Shown here one piece after another: positions 47,516 through 59,092 of a stretch of DNA of 64,000 nucleotides. Every line of letters begins with the position of its first letter. Position 1 is the stretch's first letter. The position numbers were made by a program, and so were the translations under genes. The notes beneath the pieces were generated by a model. That model was not told the DNA's origin, searched no databases, and saw only the letters and a list, made by a program, of their open reading frames with translations. Source of the DNA: a virus (Duplodnaviria; Caudoviricetes); the IMG/VR virus record IMGVR_UViG_3300010352_001543; one strand, 5' to 3'.

Positions 47516-48910
47516 TTATGCTTTTATGAATTTGTACAATTTATATTCGTTGTTATTTAACACCCAAATGAAGTAGACTCCGGATGTATATGATTCAATA
47601 TTTAGCTCAACCGTCTCTGTAATGAAACAATTTGATACTATTAATTGTCCAGTATAGTCAAAAATCCAAATAGTAGTGGTGCCAGTGAACGGTTCCAAGA
47701 ATTTTACTATGTTGTTATCATATGTTATCAAATTAGCGTCTTCTGTCCGGGTTTCCGCCATTACTGATGTTACATCACCTTCTCTATATACTAATTGAAT
47801 TAATGTACTATCAATAATATATTGTCTAAGTTTCATATTATCTTCTGTCAACAGAGTTATTGTTCTTTGTAATTCATTGATTATTTCACTCCAAACAACC
47901 ATTATGCTATCTTTTTTGATACTCTCATTTAGCCACCTTGTGTTGGCTTCAGACAAACGGATATTTTCTTTTGTTAGTGAATCGTTTTCTAATTTCAGTT
48001 CATTGCATGGATCATCCACTGTAAATAATAGTGTTTCATCAATTTTGAAACCGGTAGATTCTACTGCACCTGTAACAGTCCAATGTCCATAAGAAGGGAA
48101 ATTTAAAAACAATCCATCCGATTGATAAGACGTAGCACTAATTAAAGAATCATTTAAATATACTTTAATATGAACGTTTTTGAAATTTTCAGATTTTTCC
48201 CAATCAATCTGAACTACATCATTTAAATTTTTTGTTCCTGAATATGTTTTAAATCGGAAGTATGTATCTCTTTCTAAAACAGGTATCATATCAGATTGTG
48301 CTACTACAATATTTGTCTCGTTATATACATACCTGTATTGAACGGAACCTGGAACAAGATAGATATTATCGAATTCATAAACTACTTCATTTGCTATATT
48401 AATTTTTTCGATATTATTCCAATTGATTCCATCTTGAGAAAATTGTAATGTTAATTGACTTGGGAGATGTAATGGATTGAATATTGTCTTTGCTATATAG
48501 TGGCCACCATTATAAATTTCAGAAGGTATTAAGGTAAATTGACCAGAAGAGGCGATAAAGTTAATAGTATGTACATCTATAGGTTCTGTTCCCCATTCAT
48601 CATCTGGATTAACAAAAATACCAATTAATGCATTTGATACTATTGTTTCCGGTACATAAGAAAATGTTTTTGTTGCTGGTCTTGGATTCTCCCAACTGGT
48701 GATTTCTGTTATTTGTTGCCATGTTGTTCCATTATCGAATGACAAAGCTACGTAAAATTGATCGGACATTGCCGGTGACCAATCTTCAACTGTGTAAGTG
48801 AATGCTGTTTTGAAATAGTAGTTTTCATTTAAATTTTTGAAACCTTCAGCATTTAGTGTGAAGTAGCATGAAATTGCTACTAATAATGTGATCAGTAATT
48901 TTTTAAACAT
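47516..48910 (-). CDS. secreted protein with coiled coil and T9SS CTD
   Basis: signal peptide; IFDYTGQL...LNIESYTSGVYFI...YKFIK. Confidence 0.7.
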   Translation of the reverse strand: MFKKLLITLLVAISCYFTLNAEGFKNLNENYYFKTAFTYTVEDWSPAMSDQFYVALSFDNGTTWQQITEITSWENPRPATKTFSYVPETIVSNALIGIFVNPDDEWGTEPIDVHTINFIASSGQFTLIPSEIYNGGHYIAKTIFNPLHLPSQLTLQFSQDGINWNNIEKINIANEVVYEFDNIYLVPGSVQYRYVYNETNIVVAQSDMIPVLERDTYFRFKTYSGTKNLNDVVQIDWEKSENFKNVHIKVYLNDSLISATSYQSDGLFLNFPSYGHWTVTGAVESTGFKIDETLLFTVDDPCNELKLENDSLTKENIRLSEANTRWLNESIKKDSIMVVWSEIINELQRTITLLTEDNMKLRQYIIDSTLIQLVYREGDVTSVMAETRTEDANLITYDNNIVKFLEPFTGTTTIWIFDYTGQLIVSNCFITETVELNIESYTSGVYFIWVLNNNEYKLYKFIKA

Positions 48911-50854: not shown

Positions 50855-51157
50855 CTATCGTGATTCATTCATAAATTCTTCAAATTTCATGACTCTGGAT
50901 TCATTTTGTTTTGTTTTGCCTATGTCGGTTGCTTTTGTTTTCAAATGTTGGACATTATCCGCTTTGGTGAAGTCGATAGAATCCATCACTTTATCCGGAA
51001 GATTTTTAGTTTTAATAGAAGCAAAATCTTCAAGGTCTTTTAAAGACATCGAATCTGCTAATTCTTTTACTTCGGTTGAGGCATCAACGGTCTCTCCTCT
51101 TTTGTATGCTAAGGCCATTCCCATGATTGCTTGTTGTGCTTTTGATTTTGCTGGCAT
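50855..51157 (-). CDS. DUF3008-like protein; frame stays open about 70 codons past its TAG
   Basis: MPAKSKAQQ..MG.ALA.KRGE...SMS..DLEDFA; ends MKFEEFMNESR*. Confidence 0.75.
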   Translation of the reverse strand: MPAKSKAQQAIMGMALAYKRGETVDASTEVKELADSMSLKDLEDFASIKTKNLPDKVMDSIDFTKADNVQHLKTKATDIGKTKQNESRVMKFEEFMNESR

Positions 51158-51184
51158 TTTTATTACTCTTTTATTTAAAAATTA

Positions 51185-51345
51185 AAAAACGAGGATAGTT
51201 AGAGGGTTTTTAACCTCATCGACATGTTGGTCTTTCAGGCCAAGTTGTACACGGGAATTCCTCACAACGCGATCGAATACAACCGGTCTTGCTCTCTCAT
51301 TAGCTTAGTGAACTTTTTCGTGTGTTCACTTTCCTATCCTCTGAA
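51185..51345 (-). ncRNA. unclassified multi-stem structured RNA
   Basis: GC-rich intergenic island; GAGGATAG/CTATCCTC closing stem, four internal hairpins, 3' U-run. Confidence 0.5.
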
Positions 51346-51529
51346 CCGCTAAATTAAGTATGCTGATATGGTGATTTAAACCAAACTCGCCTAAAATAGA
51401 GACGGCCTATAGTATATATTATCTACAATAGTAGAAATTTTTTAAGAAAGATTATTAAAGAAGTTATAATAGATGAATCAATTATATAATCAAAATAACC
51501 CTCTAATTATATATTTAAAATTAATATTT

Positions 51530-51592
51530 GCTCCATGACAAGGAATCGAACCTTGAACTGAAATGTAATCTTTCTCCGTTTGTCATACAGAG
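51530..51592 (-). pseudogene. degenerate tRNA remnant
   Basis: T-arm CAAGG-TTCGATT-CCTTG intact, no anticodon arm. Confidence 0.45.
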
Positions 51593-52151
51593 AAATCAAA
51601 CAAAAACAGGTTATCCATTTATAACTCATGAAACCTTGAAACATTTTTGTTTTATACAAATTCGGTGATTTAATTTATGTACTTCTATTAATCAATAAAT
51701 TATAAACATAAATTTTGTTTTTTTTACTAATATATATAAATTTATCAACTTGAATTTTAATTGAACCAACAGGCAACAATTTTGTTGACACAGTTTAGTA
51801 TTTCATTTCAAAAATTGTTTCAAAGAACGACGTTCTATTTTCTAACCTTCTAAAATTGTATATTCAGCAACTCTTCTGAAAAAGTAAACTGTTTTATCCA
51901 ATTCAATTTTTCCGTTCGATGCTGCATTGGTCAAATGACCTTCTGTTTCTTTCCAAAGTACAACCGGACCAAGTTCCGGAAAATTAGCACCATAAAAAGG
52001 ACTTTCGATTGGATATGCTTTACGGTAACATTTTGATTCTATTGACAAAGCTATTTCTTTAGCTGCATTGAAATTATTTAATTCGGTATTTTGAGATTCT
52101 GTTAGCATTTTCTATTTTCCTAAAATTATTAGTTTTATTTAATTTATAATA

Positions 52152-52225: not shown

Positions 52226-52302
52226 TGGCGGAACCATCGGGATTCGAACCCGAGATCTCTTGATAGACAGTCAAGCGCTTTAACCAACTAAGCTATGATT
52301 CC
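52226..52302 (-). tRNA. tRNA-Asp(GTC), CCA encoded
   Basis: cloverleaf, loop CTGTCTA. Confidence 0.92.
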
Positions 52303-52307
52303 ATTTC

Positions 52308-52382
52308 GGTGGATTATAAAGGACTTGAACCTTCACCTTCGGTATGCAAAACCGATATGCTCCCAATTAACACTAATAACCC
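52308..52382 (-). tRNA. tRNA-Ala(TGC)
   Basis: G3-U70 pair, loop TTTGCAT. Confidence 0.9.
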
Positions 52383-52389
52383 GTTCTTG

Positions 52390-52462
52390 TACGTCTAAGC
52401 AGGATCGAACTGCTACCAATGGATTGAAGGTCCATTAAACTATCCATTTATTCTATAGACGC
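52390..52462 (-). tRNA. tRNA-Glu(TTC), atypical C33
   Basis: stem ATGGA/TCCAT, loop CCTTCAA. Confidence 0.7.
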
Positions 52463-52469
52463 ATAATTG

Positions 52470-52541
52470 AGACATCGGTGAGAATCGCACTCACATAAAC
52501 GGTTTTGCAGACCGCTACCTAAACTATTCGGACACGATGTC
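52470..52541 (-). tRNA. tRNA-Cys(GCA)
   Basis: loop CTGCAAA, U73. Confidence 0.88.
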
Positions 52542-52553
52542 GTTGCTGTTTTG

Positions 52554-52627
52554 TGCCTTGACGTGGTAACGCTCCACGCTCTTCGGTGTTTCAAACCGAT
52601 GCTTTCTACTTGATTAGCTTTCAAGGC
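52554..52627 (-). tRNA. tRNA-Phe(GAA)
   Basis: loop TTGAAAC; atypical T-loop. Confidence 0.8.
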
Positions 52628-52635
52628 ATTTCTTG

Positions 52636-52708
<73 letters not shown>

Positions 52709-52715
52709 AATTTTG

Positions 52716-52790
52716 TGAAAATAGAAGGATTTGAACCTTCGACCATCTGCGTGTAAAACAGATGCTCTATACCAACTGAGCTATATTTTC
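52716..52790 (-). tRNA. tRNA-Val(TAC)
   Basis: loop TTTACAC. Confidence 0.92.
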
Positions 52791-52795
52791 ATCTG

Positions 52796-52869
52796 TGGAC
52801 CCTGTTGGGATTGAACCAACGATTTCTGAGTTATGAGCTCAGTACTTTTACCAACTAAGTTAAAGGTCC
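52796..52869 (-). tRNA. tRNA-Ile2/Met(CAT)
   Basis: loop CTCATAA; GGACCTT acceptor resembles Ile2. Confidence 0.85.
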
Positions 52870-52877
52870 ATTACTTG

Positions 52878-52951
52878 CACTGATAGTTAGATTCGAACTA
52901 ACATTTATCAAATTAGAAGTTTGATGCTCTATCCAGTTGAGCTATATCAGC
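52878..52951 (-). tRNA. tRNA-Arg(TCT)
   Basis: loop CTTCTAA. Confidence 0.92.
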
Positions 52952-52960
52952 GTTGTTTTG

Positions 52961-53033
52961 TAGCGGACCCGGAACCTGCCTCCGGAACTACAGCTTATGA
53001 GACTGTCGAGATAACTAATTTCTCTAATCCGCT
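52961..53033 (-). tRNA. tRNA-Met(CAT), initiator-like, atypical T-loop
   Basis: AGCGGAT acceptor, loop CTCATAA, T-loop GGCAGGT. Confidence 0.7.
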
Positions 53034-53040
53034 ATTTTTG

Positions 53041-53112
53041 CACGTCGAGCAGGTCTCGAACCTGAACCCGTGGGTTTGGAATCCACTACTCTACCAATTG
53101 AGCTATCGACGT
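53041..53112 (-). tRNA. tRNA-Trp(CCA)
   Basis: loop TTCCAAA. Confidence 0.88.
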
Positions 53113-53120
53113 ATATCTTG

Positions 53121-53194
53121 AGCGCCTACCCGGGGTTGAACCGAGACATTTTGGTTGGAAGCCAAACATGCTAATCCATTAACATCATAGGCGC
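53121..53194 (-). tRNA. tRNA-Gly(TCC)
   Basis: GCG acceptor, U73, loop CTTCCAA. Confidence 0.9.
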
Positions 53195-53200
53195 GTTTTG

Positions 53201-53283
53201 CAGAAGCAACCGGATTTGAACCGATACATCCTTTCGGACAACTCATTAGCGGTGAGTAGCAATACCAATTATGCGATGCTTCT
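53201..53283 (-). tRNA. tRNA-Ser(GCT), C33
   Basis: long variable arm, loop CCGCTAA. Confidence 0.85.
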
Positions 53284-53287
53284 ATCG

Positions 53288-53361
53288 GGTAATTAATGAG
53301 GAACGATCTCATACTTTCAGCTTCACAGGCTGGGGTGCTAACCAATTACACCATAATTACC
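53288..53361 (-). tRNA. tRNA-His(GTG)
   Basis: G-1/C73, loop CTGTGAA. Confidence 0.88.
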
Positions 53362-53373
53362 GTGTTTAAAAAA

Positions 53374-53409
53374 TGCACCAAATATTCTATCCAGTTGAGC
53401 TAATGGTGC
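53374..53409 (-). pseudogene. internally deleted tRNA-Arg-like remnant
   Basis: GCACCATTAGCTCAACTGGATAGAATA joined directly to TTTGGTGCA. Confidence 0.7.
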
Positions 53410-53423
53410 GTTTTTTATTATTG

Positions 53424-53495
53424 AGCTCACAAAAGGAATCGAACCCTTATCTGAAGATTACAAGTCATCTGTTCTACCAATTGAACTATGCGAGC
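53424..53495 (-). tRNA. tRNA-Thr(TGT)
   Basis: loop CTTGTAA. Confidence 0.9.
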
Positions 53496-53498
53496 ATT

Positions 53499-53575
53499 TG
53501 GTTGTCTATCAAGGATTTGAACCTAAATCTTTGCTGTATCAGAGCAACATTCTAACCGGATTGAACTAATAGACA
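53499..53575 (-). tRNA. tRNA-Ile(GAT), CCA encoded
   Basis: loop CTGATAC. Confidence 0.88.
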
Positions 53576-53585
53576 ATATTATATG

Positions 53586-53670
53586 TGTCAGAGGTGGGCA
53601 TCGAACCCACATGGAATTTCTTCCACGGGTTTTTAAGACCCGTGCGTACTACCAATTTCGCCACTCCGAC
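53586..53670 (-). tRNA. tRNA-Leu(TAA)
   Basis: long variable arm, loop CTTAAAA. Confidence 0.92.
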
Positions 53671-53678
53671 ATTTTAAG

Positions 53679-53752
53679 TAATCACGCTAAGATTTGAACT
53701 TAGACTTTATGACTTTTGAAATCATCGCCACTGCCAATTGGGCTACGTGATC
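53679..53752 (-). tRNA. tRNA-Leu(CAA), short variable loop
   Basis: loop TTCAAAA; variable region AAAGT only. Confidence 0.8.
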
Positions 53753-53760
53753 ATTTGAAG

Positions 53761-54576
53761 TAACCCTACTTGGATTTGAACCAAGACTTTTTATATCAAA
53801 TCTAAAAACCCTTCACTGGAAAACCATCTTCTTTTAAATTCTTTGTGATTTATCCGTGTAACATTATATCCAATATCCTTTAAATAATTATCTCTTATCT
53901 TATCTTTTTCTATCGTCTTTTCATGTTGATTACCATCTAATTCTATTATTAATTTTTTATCTTCAAATGTATAATCTGCGAATATGTTCTTTTTATCTTT
54001 CTCATTATAAAAATGTCTATTATACTGATATTCAATTTTATTAGATATCAAATATTTTTCAAAATTTTCTTCCATCCACGATCTCTTATGACTTCCGTAT
54101 ATCTTATGATTTTCTGGATTTTTTAGCCATTCTGTTCTTGCTTTTGAAATTTTAGACCTTCTTATTAATTCTTTCTCTGTAGTAGAAGCTCGACCAGTTG
54201 GAGCTTTAGTTATTCCATTTTTCATATTTAATGAGCTATTAATAGAGTTTCTTTTGATTCTTTCATCTGTGTACTTTGTCAATCCTTTAGACCAACCTCT
54301 TTTAGCAAGATCATCAACAGACATTTCATCTTTTCTCTTCTGGACAATTCTACCATCATTGTAGCATTTTTTAACACCTTCACTATTCTTTTTTCTATTT
54401 GTCGGACAACTATTATAAGATTTAGAGCAACACCATTTTCCACTTTTAGATTGATATATTGCTTCTTGTCCACATCCATACTCACATAATTGAATTTCAT
54501 CCATAATACACTATAATATTTTTAATAATATAGTATATATTTGAGACTGTCTCCTCTGCCGTTGGGATATAGGGTC
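53761..54576 (-). pseudogene. tRNA-Leu(CAA) split at the anticodon loop by an endonuclease gene (5' half 54541-54576, 3' half 53761-53790)
   Basis: GACCCTA...ACAGT-CTCAAA | insert | AAAGT-CTTGG-TTCAAAT-CCAAG-TAGGGTTA; acceptor strands complementary. Confidence 0.8.
53791..54504 (-). mobile_element. free-standing homing endonuclease (CEYGCG Zn motif, NUMOD3-like, DUF559/Vsr-like nuclease)
   Basis: WSKGLTK; ADY...IIELDGNQH...DKIRD.YL...GY.V.RI. Confidence 0.8.
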
Positions 54577-54584
54577 ATTTTACA

Positions 54585-54667
54585 GGTGCCGTTTTATGGA
54601 ATTGAACCATACTGTACTAAGTACAAAAGTTTTACAGACTTCGTCGCCACCTTGGCTGTTAAACGGC
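54585..54667 (-). tRNA. tRNA-Tyr(GTA)
   Basis: long variable arm, loop CTGTAAA; atypical D-arm. Confidence 0.8.
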
Positions 54668-54675
54668 TTTTTATT

Positions 54676-54751
54676 TGGCTCATCGGGTAGGACTCGAACC
54701 TACAATCGCCGCGTTAACAGCGCGGTACTCTACCAATTGAGTTACCGATGA
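54676..54751 (-). tRNA. tRNA-Asn(GTT), CCA encoded
   Basis: loop CTGTTAA. Confidence 0.93.
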
Positions 54752-54762
54752 ATTTTAATCTG

Positions 54763-54835
54763 CTGCCGGTGAATGATTTGAACATTCATAAACGGCTTCA
54801 AAGGCCGTTGTCTTAACCAGTTGGACGAACCGACA
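54763..54835 (-). tRNA. tRNA-Gln(TTG)
   Basis: loop CTTTGAA. Confidence 0.88.
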
Positions 54836-54869
54836 GTATTTTATTTTCTAATTTTCAAAGGACTAAGGC

Positions 54870-54944
54870 GGTCAGTGCGCAGCGACTTGAACGCTGACTC
54901 CTGGCTCCCAAAACCAGTGGATTAACCAATTTTCCTACGCACTG
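54870..54944 (-). tRNA. tRNA-Pro(TGG), first tRNA of the operon
   Basis: loop TTTGGGA. Confidence 0.88.
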
Positions 54945-54952
54945 AGTATAAT

Positions 54953-54988
54953 AAAAAACCGAATTTCTTGTTTAGTGAAATCCGGTTT
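54953..54988 (-). terminator. intrinsic terminator between leader ORF and first tRNA (putative attenuator)
   Basis: AAACCGGATTTC-loop-GAAATTCGGTTT followed by U-rich tail. Confidence 0.75.
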
Positions 54989-55020
54989 AATATTTTTAAT
55001 TTTTTATGAATAAAACGTTT

Positions 55021-55215
55021 TTAAAACGTTTCAAAACAAACCGGATTTATCTTTCTTGCTGCTCCACTAAATAGATAGCTTTCATGATCATTATTGTTGA
55101 CGTTTTGTATCGAACAATAAAATTCACTGCCAGGTTTCGTTGAGCTGGTTGAGCTGGTTGAGCTGGTTAAGGGGCAATTTCTGCTAATCTGATATGTCAT
55201 GTTTGATGTTTTCAT
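55021..55215 (-). CDS. putative attenuator leader peptide of the tRNA operon
   Basis: 3' end carries AAATCCGGTTT complementary to the terminator 5' arm; (ACC AGC TCA)x3; 19 of 20 amino acids. Confidence 0.6.
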   Translation of the reverse strand: MKTSNMTYQISRNCPLTSSTSSTSSTKPGSEFYCSIQNVNNNDHESYLFSGAARKINPVCFETF

Positions 55216-55310
55216 ATAATCTATATATTAAAGTTAATTTCTACTGAATGTGTTTTTACACCTTATTTTACAATTTTCTTTCACTTTTTGAAAGAAAGTT
55301 TTTAATTATT

Positions 55311-55628
55311 TTATTTTTTAGGAGCGTAATCTTCATCTGATAACACATATCCTTCTCTTTCAAGCTCCTTGATAATCTTTTTTATCATTGTAGATCTAAA
55401 CGAAGGTCTTGTGGCTACATCTTTGGACCAAACACCTTTCCTATAAATAATTTCATAGTTTGTATTATTTCCGTTAAAATATGAAGTAATAAAAGCGTAT
55501 TTACCTTCATCGTTTTTATAAAGAGAATAACCTTCAGCACTGTTCTTAATATCAGTTTCCGTAATTCCCTCATTTAACTTATTTTCATTCAAAAAGAATT
55601 CTTCTCTTGTTAATACATGCTTATTCAT
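55311..55628 (-). CDS. CTS-leader hypothetical protein
   Basis: MNKHVLTREEFFLNENKLNEG. Confidence 0.55.
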   Translation of the reverse strand: MNKHVLTREEFFLNENKLNEGITETDIKNSAEGYSLYKNDEGKYAFITSYFNGNNTNYEIIYRKGVWSKDVATRPSFRSTMIKKIIKELEREGYVLSDEDYAPKK

Positions 55629-55660
55629 AAAATTTCTTATTTTTTGTTTTGTTAAAATTA

Positions 55661-55689
55661 TAAAGACGAAGCAATTTAATTTTTATTGT
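55661..55689 (-). promoter_or_regulatory. promoter ACAAT-N16-CGTC
   Basis: motif copy. Confidence 0.65.
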
Positions 55690-56104
55690 CGTATAGTTTT
55701 GACAATTTCGGTATTTTGCTGTCTTCTACAAATATTTTAAATGTTTCATCATTTATTAAAGATTCATATACTTCTACGTACTTGTCCTGAGCTTTAGGAA
55801 AAAAGTGCGATTTCAGCATCACAGTAATCACCTTAAAAATCCATTCCTTTCCTTTCCGGACCAATGCTCCAACAATGTTTAAATTTGATTTCAATCCATG
55901 AATTACAAATGTTTTAGCACCTTGTAAATTCTTTGTTAGGATGTTTGCTGATTTTCTAACAAGTTCTTCAATGTCTTCCCTTTTGATGTTTATAGGCAAC
56001 CCATTCCGCTCTCTGGAACGATCCATTGCATGAGTTGTCAGAAGAACATCAATTTCGTGTTGTTCTTCGTTTAGTAAAAGGGACCAGTCAAAGTAAATTT
56101 TCAT
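55676..56104 (-). CDS. DUF4258/RelE-like fold protein, possible RNase, CTS-like leader
   Basis: TTHAMDRSRER...I...VITV; LLLNEE. Confidence 0.45.
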   Translation of the reverse strand: MKIYFDWSLLLNEEQHEIDVLLTTHAMDRSRERNGLPINIKREDIEELVRKSANILTKNLQGAKTFVIHGLKSNLNIVGALVRKGKEWIFKVITVMLKSHFFPKAQDKYVEVYESLINDETFKIFVEDSKIPKLSKLYDNKN

Positions 56105-56587
56105 ACTTTCTATAATTTTTGTTGTAGTTCTTCAAGTGAGTACTTTTCAAACATTTGACAAAGAATGCCAAATTTTTCTTCATCAGCTAAATTGTTAATA
56201 GAAGGAAAATCATAATTATATCCTAATTGCTTATTTAAAAAATCACTCAAGTCTTTGTCTGACATATTGCTTAAAATTTCTTCTGCGTCATCTTTGTCTA
56301 AATCCACATCAACAATCACATAGTCTTCTTCAATATTAGTATAAATTTTTACCTCATGAGAATCATCCATCGAGTCTAATATTTCTTCTAATTGCTGTTT
56401 TTGAGTTTCATCATCAAAACTATAGGCACTGAAAAATTCTCTAACATCATCCATATCAAATACTATATATTTATGAAAGTCAACCGACACTTCTTTTTCA
56501 ATCCACATTATATGTATTCCTTAAAATATAAAATCCGTTTTCTTTTTTATACAATCAAGAAAACGGATTTGAACAACTAAATAATAT

Positions 56588-58348: not shown

Positions 58349-59092
58349 TTAACTTTTCACTTTAACAATATTAGAGCATATTCCACTCTTTGATGCATTA
58401 ACAATAGTTTGTGCTGCTGCCCCTGACACAGGTAATTTAGCATCTATCATTTTTGCTAAATTTCCAATCATATCCATAAGTGGTCCACATTTTGCCAGTG
58501 GTTCAGTACATGTTTCAGCTCCTAAATTTATGTCATCACAATCTATACTCCATTTATCATCGGCATGTTCTAACACTTTTCCATCCACCATTTCGATATA
58601 TGATGTTTTCCCTGAATGATAAATTTTAACATGTGTATCCTTATCAATATTAATTATTGACTCTTTGTGAAACAATAACAAACCTTGTTTTTGCGTGTAG
58701 AAAATACGGACCTGTTCATCTACATCCATTATCAGTACCTGACTATTAATATAGTCATCTTTGATCAACGTTTGCATTTCTGGATTCATTATTTCAACTT
58801 CTTTGTATTGTGGAGAATATAAATCTCCACCAGCAAATTGAACTGTTACTAATGTGTTTAATTTTGGAAACGAAAACGAACCAAAACCTCCACCTCCACC
58901 ATCTGCATTTTCAGCTGTCTTAGCAAAAATAGTAGATCTCATAGGGAACGCCCACGGCAAATTAGCAGGTTCAATATCATCAAACTTACTGAATATTTTT
59001 ATCTTGCAGCGTCCTAAATAGAGTGGATCTTTATTATCAACTACTACACCTAAAAAGGTACCTTCTAAATCTTCTGTCTTAAAATCTGTCAT
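58349..59092 (-). CDS. T4 gp5-like baseplate hub/spike protein (OB fold)
   Basis: GVVVDNKDPLYLGRCKIKI...LPWA.P...P.LNTLV.V.F..GD. Confidence 0.85.
   Translation of the reverse strand: MTDFKTEDLEGTFLGVVVDNKDPLYLGRCKIKIFSKFDDIEPANLPWAFPMRSTIFAKTAENADGGGGGFGSFSFPKLNTLVTVQFAGGDLYSPQYKEVEIMNPEMQTLIKDDYINSQVLIMDVDEQVRIFYTQKQGLLLFHKESIINIDKDTHVKIYHSGKTSYIEMVDGKVLEHADDKWSIDCDDINLGAETCTEPLAKCGPLMDMIGNLAKMIDAKLPVSGAAAQTIVNASKSGICSNIVKVKS

Follow-up and report, generated by a model that had tools for sequence, protein, structure and literature searches.

A probable ribosome-dependent attenuator in front of a complete tRNA operon in an uncultured jumbo phage

The window, that is the whole 64,000-nt stretch of viral DNA analysed here (IMG/VR record IMGVR_UViG_3300010352_001543), has a G+C content of 31% and carries on its minus strand the motif AATATATA, followed after 6 nt by an ORF of 64 codons, after another 32 nt by a 12-bp hairpin with a tract of six T, and 8 nt further on by a gene for tRNA-Pro that begins at 54944. 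The motif (55222-55229), located 6 nt upstream of the ATG, is probably a phage late-type promoter giving rise to a nearly leaderless transcript, by analogy to the T4 late promoter motif TATAAATA. It occurs 22 times in the window against 13.9 expected, a modest enrichment (4 of 100 shuffles), and 17 of the 22 copies are on the coding strand, about 11 of these at most 45 nt from a gene start. The leader ORF (55021-55215) is also a called gene in public assemblies, and its codon 6 is another in-frame ATG; the 64 aa match no Pfam family. Codons 17-25 form an in-frame 9-nt tandem repeat (55141-55167) encoding (Thr-Ser-Ser)x3, the (ACC AGC TCA)x3 element noted in the initial annotation. An A/U-rich hairpin on the same strand (55011-55033) has the stop codon of the leader within its loop and is followed by a predicted intrinsic terminator with the T6 tract (54953-54988), the stem of which (54956-54988) has 12 bp including one G-U pair. 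As its loop comprises 9 nt, this hairpin is omitted by a simple terminator scan restricted to loops of at most 8 nt. The positions given in the initial annotation for the promoter motif, the ORF, the antiterminator strands described below, the terminator and tRNA-Pro were all correct on recheck.

The source is an uncultured jumbo phage, as judged from a neighbour protein found on a contig of 280,711 nt. A baseplate gp5-type OB domain is encoded at 58349-59092, while the protein encoded at 47516-48910 carries a type IX secretion sorting domain (above the Pfam cut-off), so that the host may belong to the Bacteroidota group. DNA of the window is present in activated-sludge runs, and RNA contigs from three sludge libraries match it at 99% identity or higher.

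The array behind the leader contains 22 intact tRNAs serving all 20 amino acids, in agreement with the operon for 20 amino acids proposed earlier. ARAGORN called 18 of these, Gly and Phe were identified by Rfam, Tyr was added, and a second tRNA with anticodon CAT was recognized by eye at 52961-53033. The first four genes (Pro, Gln, Asn and Tyr; 54585-54944, minus strand) are separated from the other 18 by a broken tRNA-Leu(CAA) (53760-54576, minus strand). The latter is split at the anticodon by a gene for a DUF559 endonuclease (53791-54504), its 3' anticodon strand is gone, and an intact tRNA-Leu(CAA) comes next. The remaining 18 (52226-53752, minus strand) are arranged in the order Leu, Leu, Ile, Thr, His, Ser, Gly, Trp, CAT, Arg, CAT, Val, Lys, Phe, Cys, Glu, Ala and Asp. 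A tRNA fragment consisting of an acceptor start and D-arm, lacking anticodon and T-arm, lies between Thr and His (about 53376-53410). The broken tRNA-Leu also encloses another copy of AATATATA (54534-54541), which came with the endonuclease gene and had been omitted from the initial annotation. This internal motif may allow the last 18 tRNAs to bypass the switch discussed below; if it is active, strict gating may apply only to Pro, Gln, Asn and Tyr, the sole tRNAs located upstream of it. The only sigma70-like site found before these four has its -10 element at 54945-54950, and transcription from it would start inside tRNA-Pro.

Leader contigs are present in three activated-sludge metatranscriptomes, covering 55042-55320, 55183-55368 and 55081-55254 among the pieces listed. 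They extend across the AATATATA promoter from upstream and end at various positions, at a depth of 3-4 at which DNA carry-over is possible; the depth in the bin with the terminator is 0.48, 0 and 0, and the contigs are no evidence of termination. Elsewhere in the window, a non-coding stretch on the minus strand (51105-51438) lies behind a AATATATA motif (51420), is closed by an 8-bp helix and has a T-run near 51190. Its RNA contigs reach depths of 89, 32 and 35 in the three libraries, and one contig joins 51436 back to 51105, representing either a 332-nt circle or an artefact; it has no Rfam match and a folding z of just -1.3. A second non-coding stretch (51530-51829) is represented among the RNA contigs of two libraries, at depths of 78 and 5, and a low-scoring tRNA-like call falls at 51530-51632.

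The 3' end of the leader ORF is complementary to the terminator. The inner strand, AAATCCGGTTT (55038-55048, minus strand, codons 56-60), is exactly complementary to the 5' arm of the terminator (54978-54988), and the outer strand, TTTAGTG (55065-55071, minus strand), is complementary to 54971-54977, the two being nested in the correct order relative to their partners. The perfect pairing with terminator arm and loop claimed from the first inspection is thus confirmed as an exact 11-mer and 7-mer. Pairing with AAATCCGGTTT places a G-C where the terminator hairpin has its G-U, and exact matches to the 11-mer occur in the 64 kb at its two sites only. The upstream duplex has a predicted energy of -18.6 kcal/mol (z -5.1 against dinucleotide shuffles) and beats all 200 shuffles (p 0.005, the floor of the test). 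The A/U-rich hairpin around the stop codon would shorten the loop of this antiterminator.

The competition between the two helices was modelled by equilibrium folding, in which bases under a ribosome were masked. In a growing transcript free of ribosomes, the antiterminator is predicted with a probability of 0.95-0.99 once the terminator 5' arm emerges, and of 0.89-0.99 as long as 54960 is not yet free. The equilibrium shifts to the terminator from 54959 on, and the terminator probability exceeds 0.9 as soon as 54958 has been released. When a ribosome is placed at codons 10-48, the antiterminator has a probability of 0.92-0.99, compared with 0.89-0.98 when there is none, and with one at codons 58-63 the terminator reaches 0.96-1.0. 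With a footprint of -15 to +15 around the P site the boundary is at codon 53/54, the antiterminator being predicted when the A site is at any of codons 2-53, and the terminator at codon 54 and beyond, as far as the stop. A ribosome at the stop codon itself then gives the terminator 0.74-0.99, a borderline step, since with a footprint 3 nt shorter on the 5' side this ribosome ceases to block the antiterminator. The outer strand is weakly populated, at about 0.2 in the ribosome-free model and between 0 and 0.8 once a ribosome is added. Since the completed terminator prevails at equilibrium, read-through would require a kinetic trap in which the helix formed first persists while the polymerase crosses the U-tract, as is usual for attenuators. 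No 1:2 protector helix appears in the folding models of the window leader, and the untranslated state is therefore predicted to be 'on', unlike in trp.

The initial annotation had regarded the composition of the ORF as a sign of a broad sensor. Its counts of about 34 codons and 19 amino acids with no Trp are correct, but 34 codons are reached by 20% and 19 amino acids by 22% of 63-codon stretches from the genes of this phage, about a fifth in either case, and 19 amino acids also by 24% of shuffled leaders. Likewise, GC-ending codons are indeed more frequent than usual (GC3 35% versus 23%), yet 6% of stretches equal this value. Codon diversity and GC3 were consequently rejected as evidence for a sensor, being within the range of ordinary gene stretches and shuffles. 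The overall synonymous codon usage of the leader is atypical (0.4th percentile), partly owing to the 9-nt repeat. Furthermore, the array of the window covers all 20 amino acids, so that any residue of this leader would have a cognate tRNA, and Trp is absent from the leader though tRNA-Trp is present in the array. An all-amino-acid leader is a prediction of the rule found for the class as a whole, described below, and the ORF by itself is indistinguishable from chance.

With two neighbour genes as queries, no relatives spanning the leader were found; contigs with homologues of a neighbour gene at 88% and 52% stop short of it. The one other assembly compared is identical to the window across 54001-56200, and a search of metagenomes for the exact tRNA-Pro pattern gave no match. 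A near-identical relative (98% in gp5) occurs in run ERR7336226. The helices of the window are predictions from its own sequence.

A comparison to other phages was made by scanning IMG/VR for tRNAs with a G-rich T-run in front and testing the first gene of each array, an antiterminator being accepted at p 0.05 or better. Leaving out the window, a significant antiterminator precedes 11 of 15 arrays with at least eight tRNAs and a terminator in front, compared with 2/13 single tRNAs and 2/71 terminators behind long genes at the same loci (Fisher p 0.003 and 4e-9, respectively). Among 26 other arrays of at least four tRNAs and a terminator, 24 have an ATG ORF of 20-44 codons that ends 14-34 nt before the hairpin. 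The stop-to-hairpin distance is within 14-34 nt in all 25 leaders (the selection allowed up to 75) and is 32 nt in the window. Helix sequences vary between phages while complementarity holds, and the peptides are unconserved across the class. The architecture with an unconserved peptide, for which a search upstream of related tRNA arrays had been proposed as a check, is conserved in many phages. Some of the loci are related (L091, L108 and L130 have a leader type in common). As the search pattern also biased which arrays were sampled, frequencies among phages are not readable from this set. In a crude ribosome-masking test the switch was seen in just 10 of the 25 leaders. Most phages in the set distribute their tRNAs over several blocks, each with its own leader, while the window holds a single complete array. 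Among cellular genomes (120 locus ids scanned), five tRNA starts have a terminator and one, L218, a matched leader. The latter (L218:4367-4480) precedes Lys-Asn-Pro tRNAs on a contig from a Planctomycetota MAG, the gene content of which looks phage-like. Judged by its sequence features, the ribosome-dependent terminator/antiterminator design is a recurring class in phages, cultured ones included.

Some variation was noted within the set. The motif ACATA occurs 13-18 nt after the ATG in 11 of the 25 leaders, in differing frames, against 60 among 1178 ordinary gene starts. A TATGT adjoining the antiterminator can pair with it in some leaders, as a possible protector helix, a pairing that is impossible in the window. 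In the variant represented by L336 (2781-2937) and L337, a 22-aa leader with all eight array amino acids ends within tRNA-Trp, the 3' strand of which doubles as the terminator 5' arm. By eye, its acceptor helix could be the antiterminator; the fold did not recover the cloverleaf.

These comparisons bear on one alternative, namely that upstream genes or a small RNA end at the hairpin as at any ordinary terminator, that the 11-nt match is a chance event or a duplicate, and that the tRNAs are expressed by leak-through and from a promoter at 54541. The antiterminator strand is indeed a copy of the terminator 3' arm with one mismatch, and the RNA contigs that cross the promoter from upstream would suit this explanation. 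So would a similar 11-mer pair that builds another hairpin at 56531-56570, an intergenic inverted repeat with arms resembling the antiterminator 11-mer with one mismatch. However, such matches are rare at gene-end terminators, and the ORF, the spacing and the helix of the window fit the layout of the class. An ordinary terminator would also leave Pro, Gln, Asn and Tyr without a promoter, the site at 54945-54950 being placed too late for tRNA-Pro. We consider this explanation very unlikely.

The composition of the leaders follows their arrays. In 23 leaders, 57% of the residues have a cognate tRNA in the array of the same phage, versus 36% after permutation (z 9.5), while frames +1 and +2 and the reverse strand give z values of -0.4, -1.7 and 0.9; conversely, 99% of array amino acids are present in their own leader. 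This frame-specific match is the best evidence for translation of the ORFs of the class and for selection on their amino acid content. Codons that are Watson-Crick cognates of the array tRNAs are in no excess among synonymous codons (158 versus 164 expected, z -0.7; six-box codon choice, z 2.25), so that the match is one by amino acid. Over 17 complete arrays, the diversity of the array is not significantly correlated with either the diversity (rho 0.32) or the length (rho 0.33) of the leader (p about 0.2), and Trp is among merely three array amino acids absent across 25 leaders. Just one further complete array was found (L126/L338); its leader of 44 aa contains all 20 amino acids, as do 0.5% of gene stretches. 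Seven leaders added later match as well: two in a 635-kb megaphage (L343), those of L336 and L218, and three in cultured Caulobacter phages. In the last three, from Ccr34 and CcrC3, the share of residues served by their own array is 0.93, 0.65 and 0.87, and the seven amino acids served by the array of Ccr34 gp089 make up 93% of its residues. The Ccr34 leaders lie at L345:2906-3043 and L345:4707-4805. The CcrC3 counterpart of gp089, gp135, has a Trp codon in the leader and an array ending in tRNA-Trp, while the Ccr34 pair has neither. The cassette was absent from the fetched stretches of Aeromonas 65, RSL1, DLP_6, BcoS-136, SPA01, S-PM2, BcepSauron and the T5-like polluks.

The idea of a broad sensor thus gains from other leaders, which spell the amino acids of their own arrays, and from the 20 amino acids in that of L126/L338, although the diversity of the window ORF is unremarkable. 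The match also weighs against a switch that senses merely whether the leader is translated, responding to a block of initiation, ribosome damage or late uncoupling, with codon identity irrelevant and the codons acting as filler. Such a switch would agree with the read-through predicted by the model when no ribosome is present, with the amino acid spread of the window ORF equalling that of shuffled sequence, and with the 9-nt repeat, which looks like tolerated drift. In view of the strong and frame-specific signal across the class and the 44-aa leader of L126/L338, we regard it as improbable. The window leader is the longest in the set and is called as a gene, which might indicate that the peptide is itself the functional product, either a ligand-dependent arrest peptide (TnaC/ErmCL-like), with an RNA switch reading one arrest site, or a trans-acting small protein. 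This appears most unlikely, as the leaders are unconserved across the class with a composition that tracks the arrays, the ORF lacks a Pfam family, and the model outcome is identical for stalls anywhere in codons 2-53. The element is probably a matched leader attenuator, in a version covering all amino acids.

Such attenuators are well known from the enterobacterial ilvGMEDA, thr, ilvBN and trpL/hisL systems, in which a translated leader with cognate control codons, an exclusive antiterminator/terminator pair and ribosome position as the switch are combined. The window shares with these a short ORF between promoter and first gene, a predicted terminator and an exclusive antiterminator above chance, with ribosome position as the proposed switch. 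It differs from the trp/his-type geometry named in the initial annotation in lacking, in the models, a 1:2 protector helix and in lacking a target in amino acid biosynthesis or a synthetase, the place of which is taken by 22 tRNAs. Unlike in ilvGMEDA, thr and trpL/hisL, tRNAs of a phage would be regulated, up to 19-20 amino acids would be sensed, and the antiterminator strand lies within the ORF before the stop, so that no translation means 'on'. With good confidence, we propose that the element acts in the manner of multivalent leader-peptide attenuators such as ilvGMEDA and thr, but on the tRNA genes of a phage. The pheM leader of the pheST synthetase operon likewise senses charged tRNA and controls part of the translation machinery, but it responds to one amino acid, has a protein product and is chromosomal, while the phage leaders concern many amino acids and a tRNA product. 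In whiB7/wblC and in Listeria hflXr and lmo0919, antitermination is promoted when ribosomes stall or slow at any point of a short uORF; these differ in being induced by ribosome-targeting drugs, in a composition unmatched to the product and in controlling proteins. T-box riboswitches bind uncharged tRNA directly and, as proposed here, choose between terminator and antiterminator by tRNA charging, while in the phage element the signal lies in the reading frame; a T-box with its stem I specifier and antiterminator bulge was rejected, as 54945-55230 has no match to any Rfam family, T-box included, at E values up to 1. Among published systems the closest in function, to judge by the abstract, is the trn operon of Anabaena, a large accessory array of 26 tRNA genes on a megaplasmid that is normally silent and switched on under translational stress (PMC10272220). 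Its control is at initiation by the ribbon-helix-helix repressor TrcR, and neither a leader peptide nor a terminator switch is mentioned in the abstract (PMC10272220). No account of attenuators of phage tRNA genes was found in the literature searched, most subscription journals being outside its scope.

In the mechanism that we consider likely, the element is a ribosome-dependent transcription attenuator gating the complete phage tRNA operon, and an all-amino-acid member of its class. Transcription would begin right behind AATATATA and the leader would be translated immediately. A ribosome keeping pace would cover 55038-55048 and be at the stop codon as the terminator 5' arm emerges, whereupon the hairpin would form and transcription end 8 nt before tRNA-Pro. 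Should the ribosome fall behind anywhere in codons 2-53, or be missing altogether, the antiterminator of 11-12 bp would form first and, in the models, block the hairpin until the polymerase has passed the U-tract. With 19 of the 20 served amino acids in the leader, the switch would act as an OR gate, a shortage of almost any charged tRNA raising the output, as would any other slowdown of the ribosome. Translation of this ORF, coupling to the host polymerase, induction by a shortage of charged tRNA and a link to anticodon nucleases may all be part of this scheme.

What phages gain from tRNA genes has been asked for a long time; the usual explanations are compensation of codon bias and replacement of tRNAs destroyed by host defence. 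We lean slightly towards the broader view that phages monitor the charged-tRNA pool via leaders listing the amino acids of each block and release the tRNA genes on demand, here by one audit gene for all amino acids, whereby an attack by the host (anticodon nucleases, starvation) would itself trigger the resupply. As the element is present in CbK-group phages of Caulobacter, which are in culture, the design is open to experiment now. If the switch holds the tRNAs back until decoding slows, this would argue for a conditional reserve, and each leader would name the shortages that its phage expects. Ribosome-dependent attenuation would then extend to tRNA genes and to viruses.
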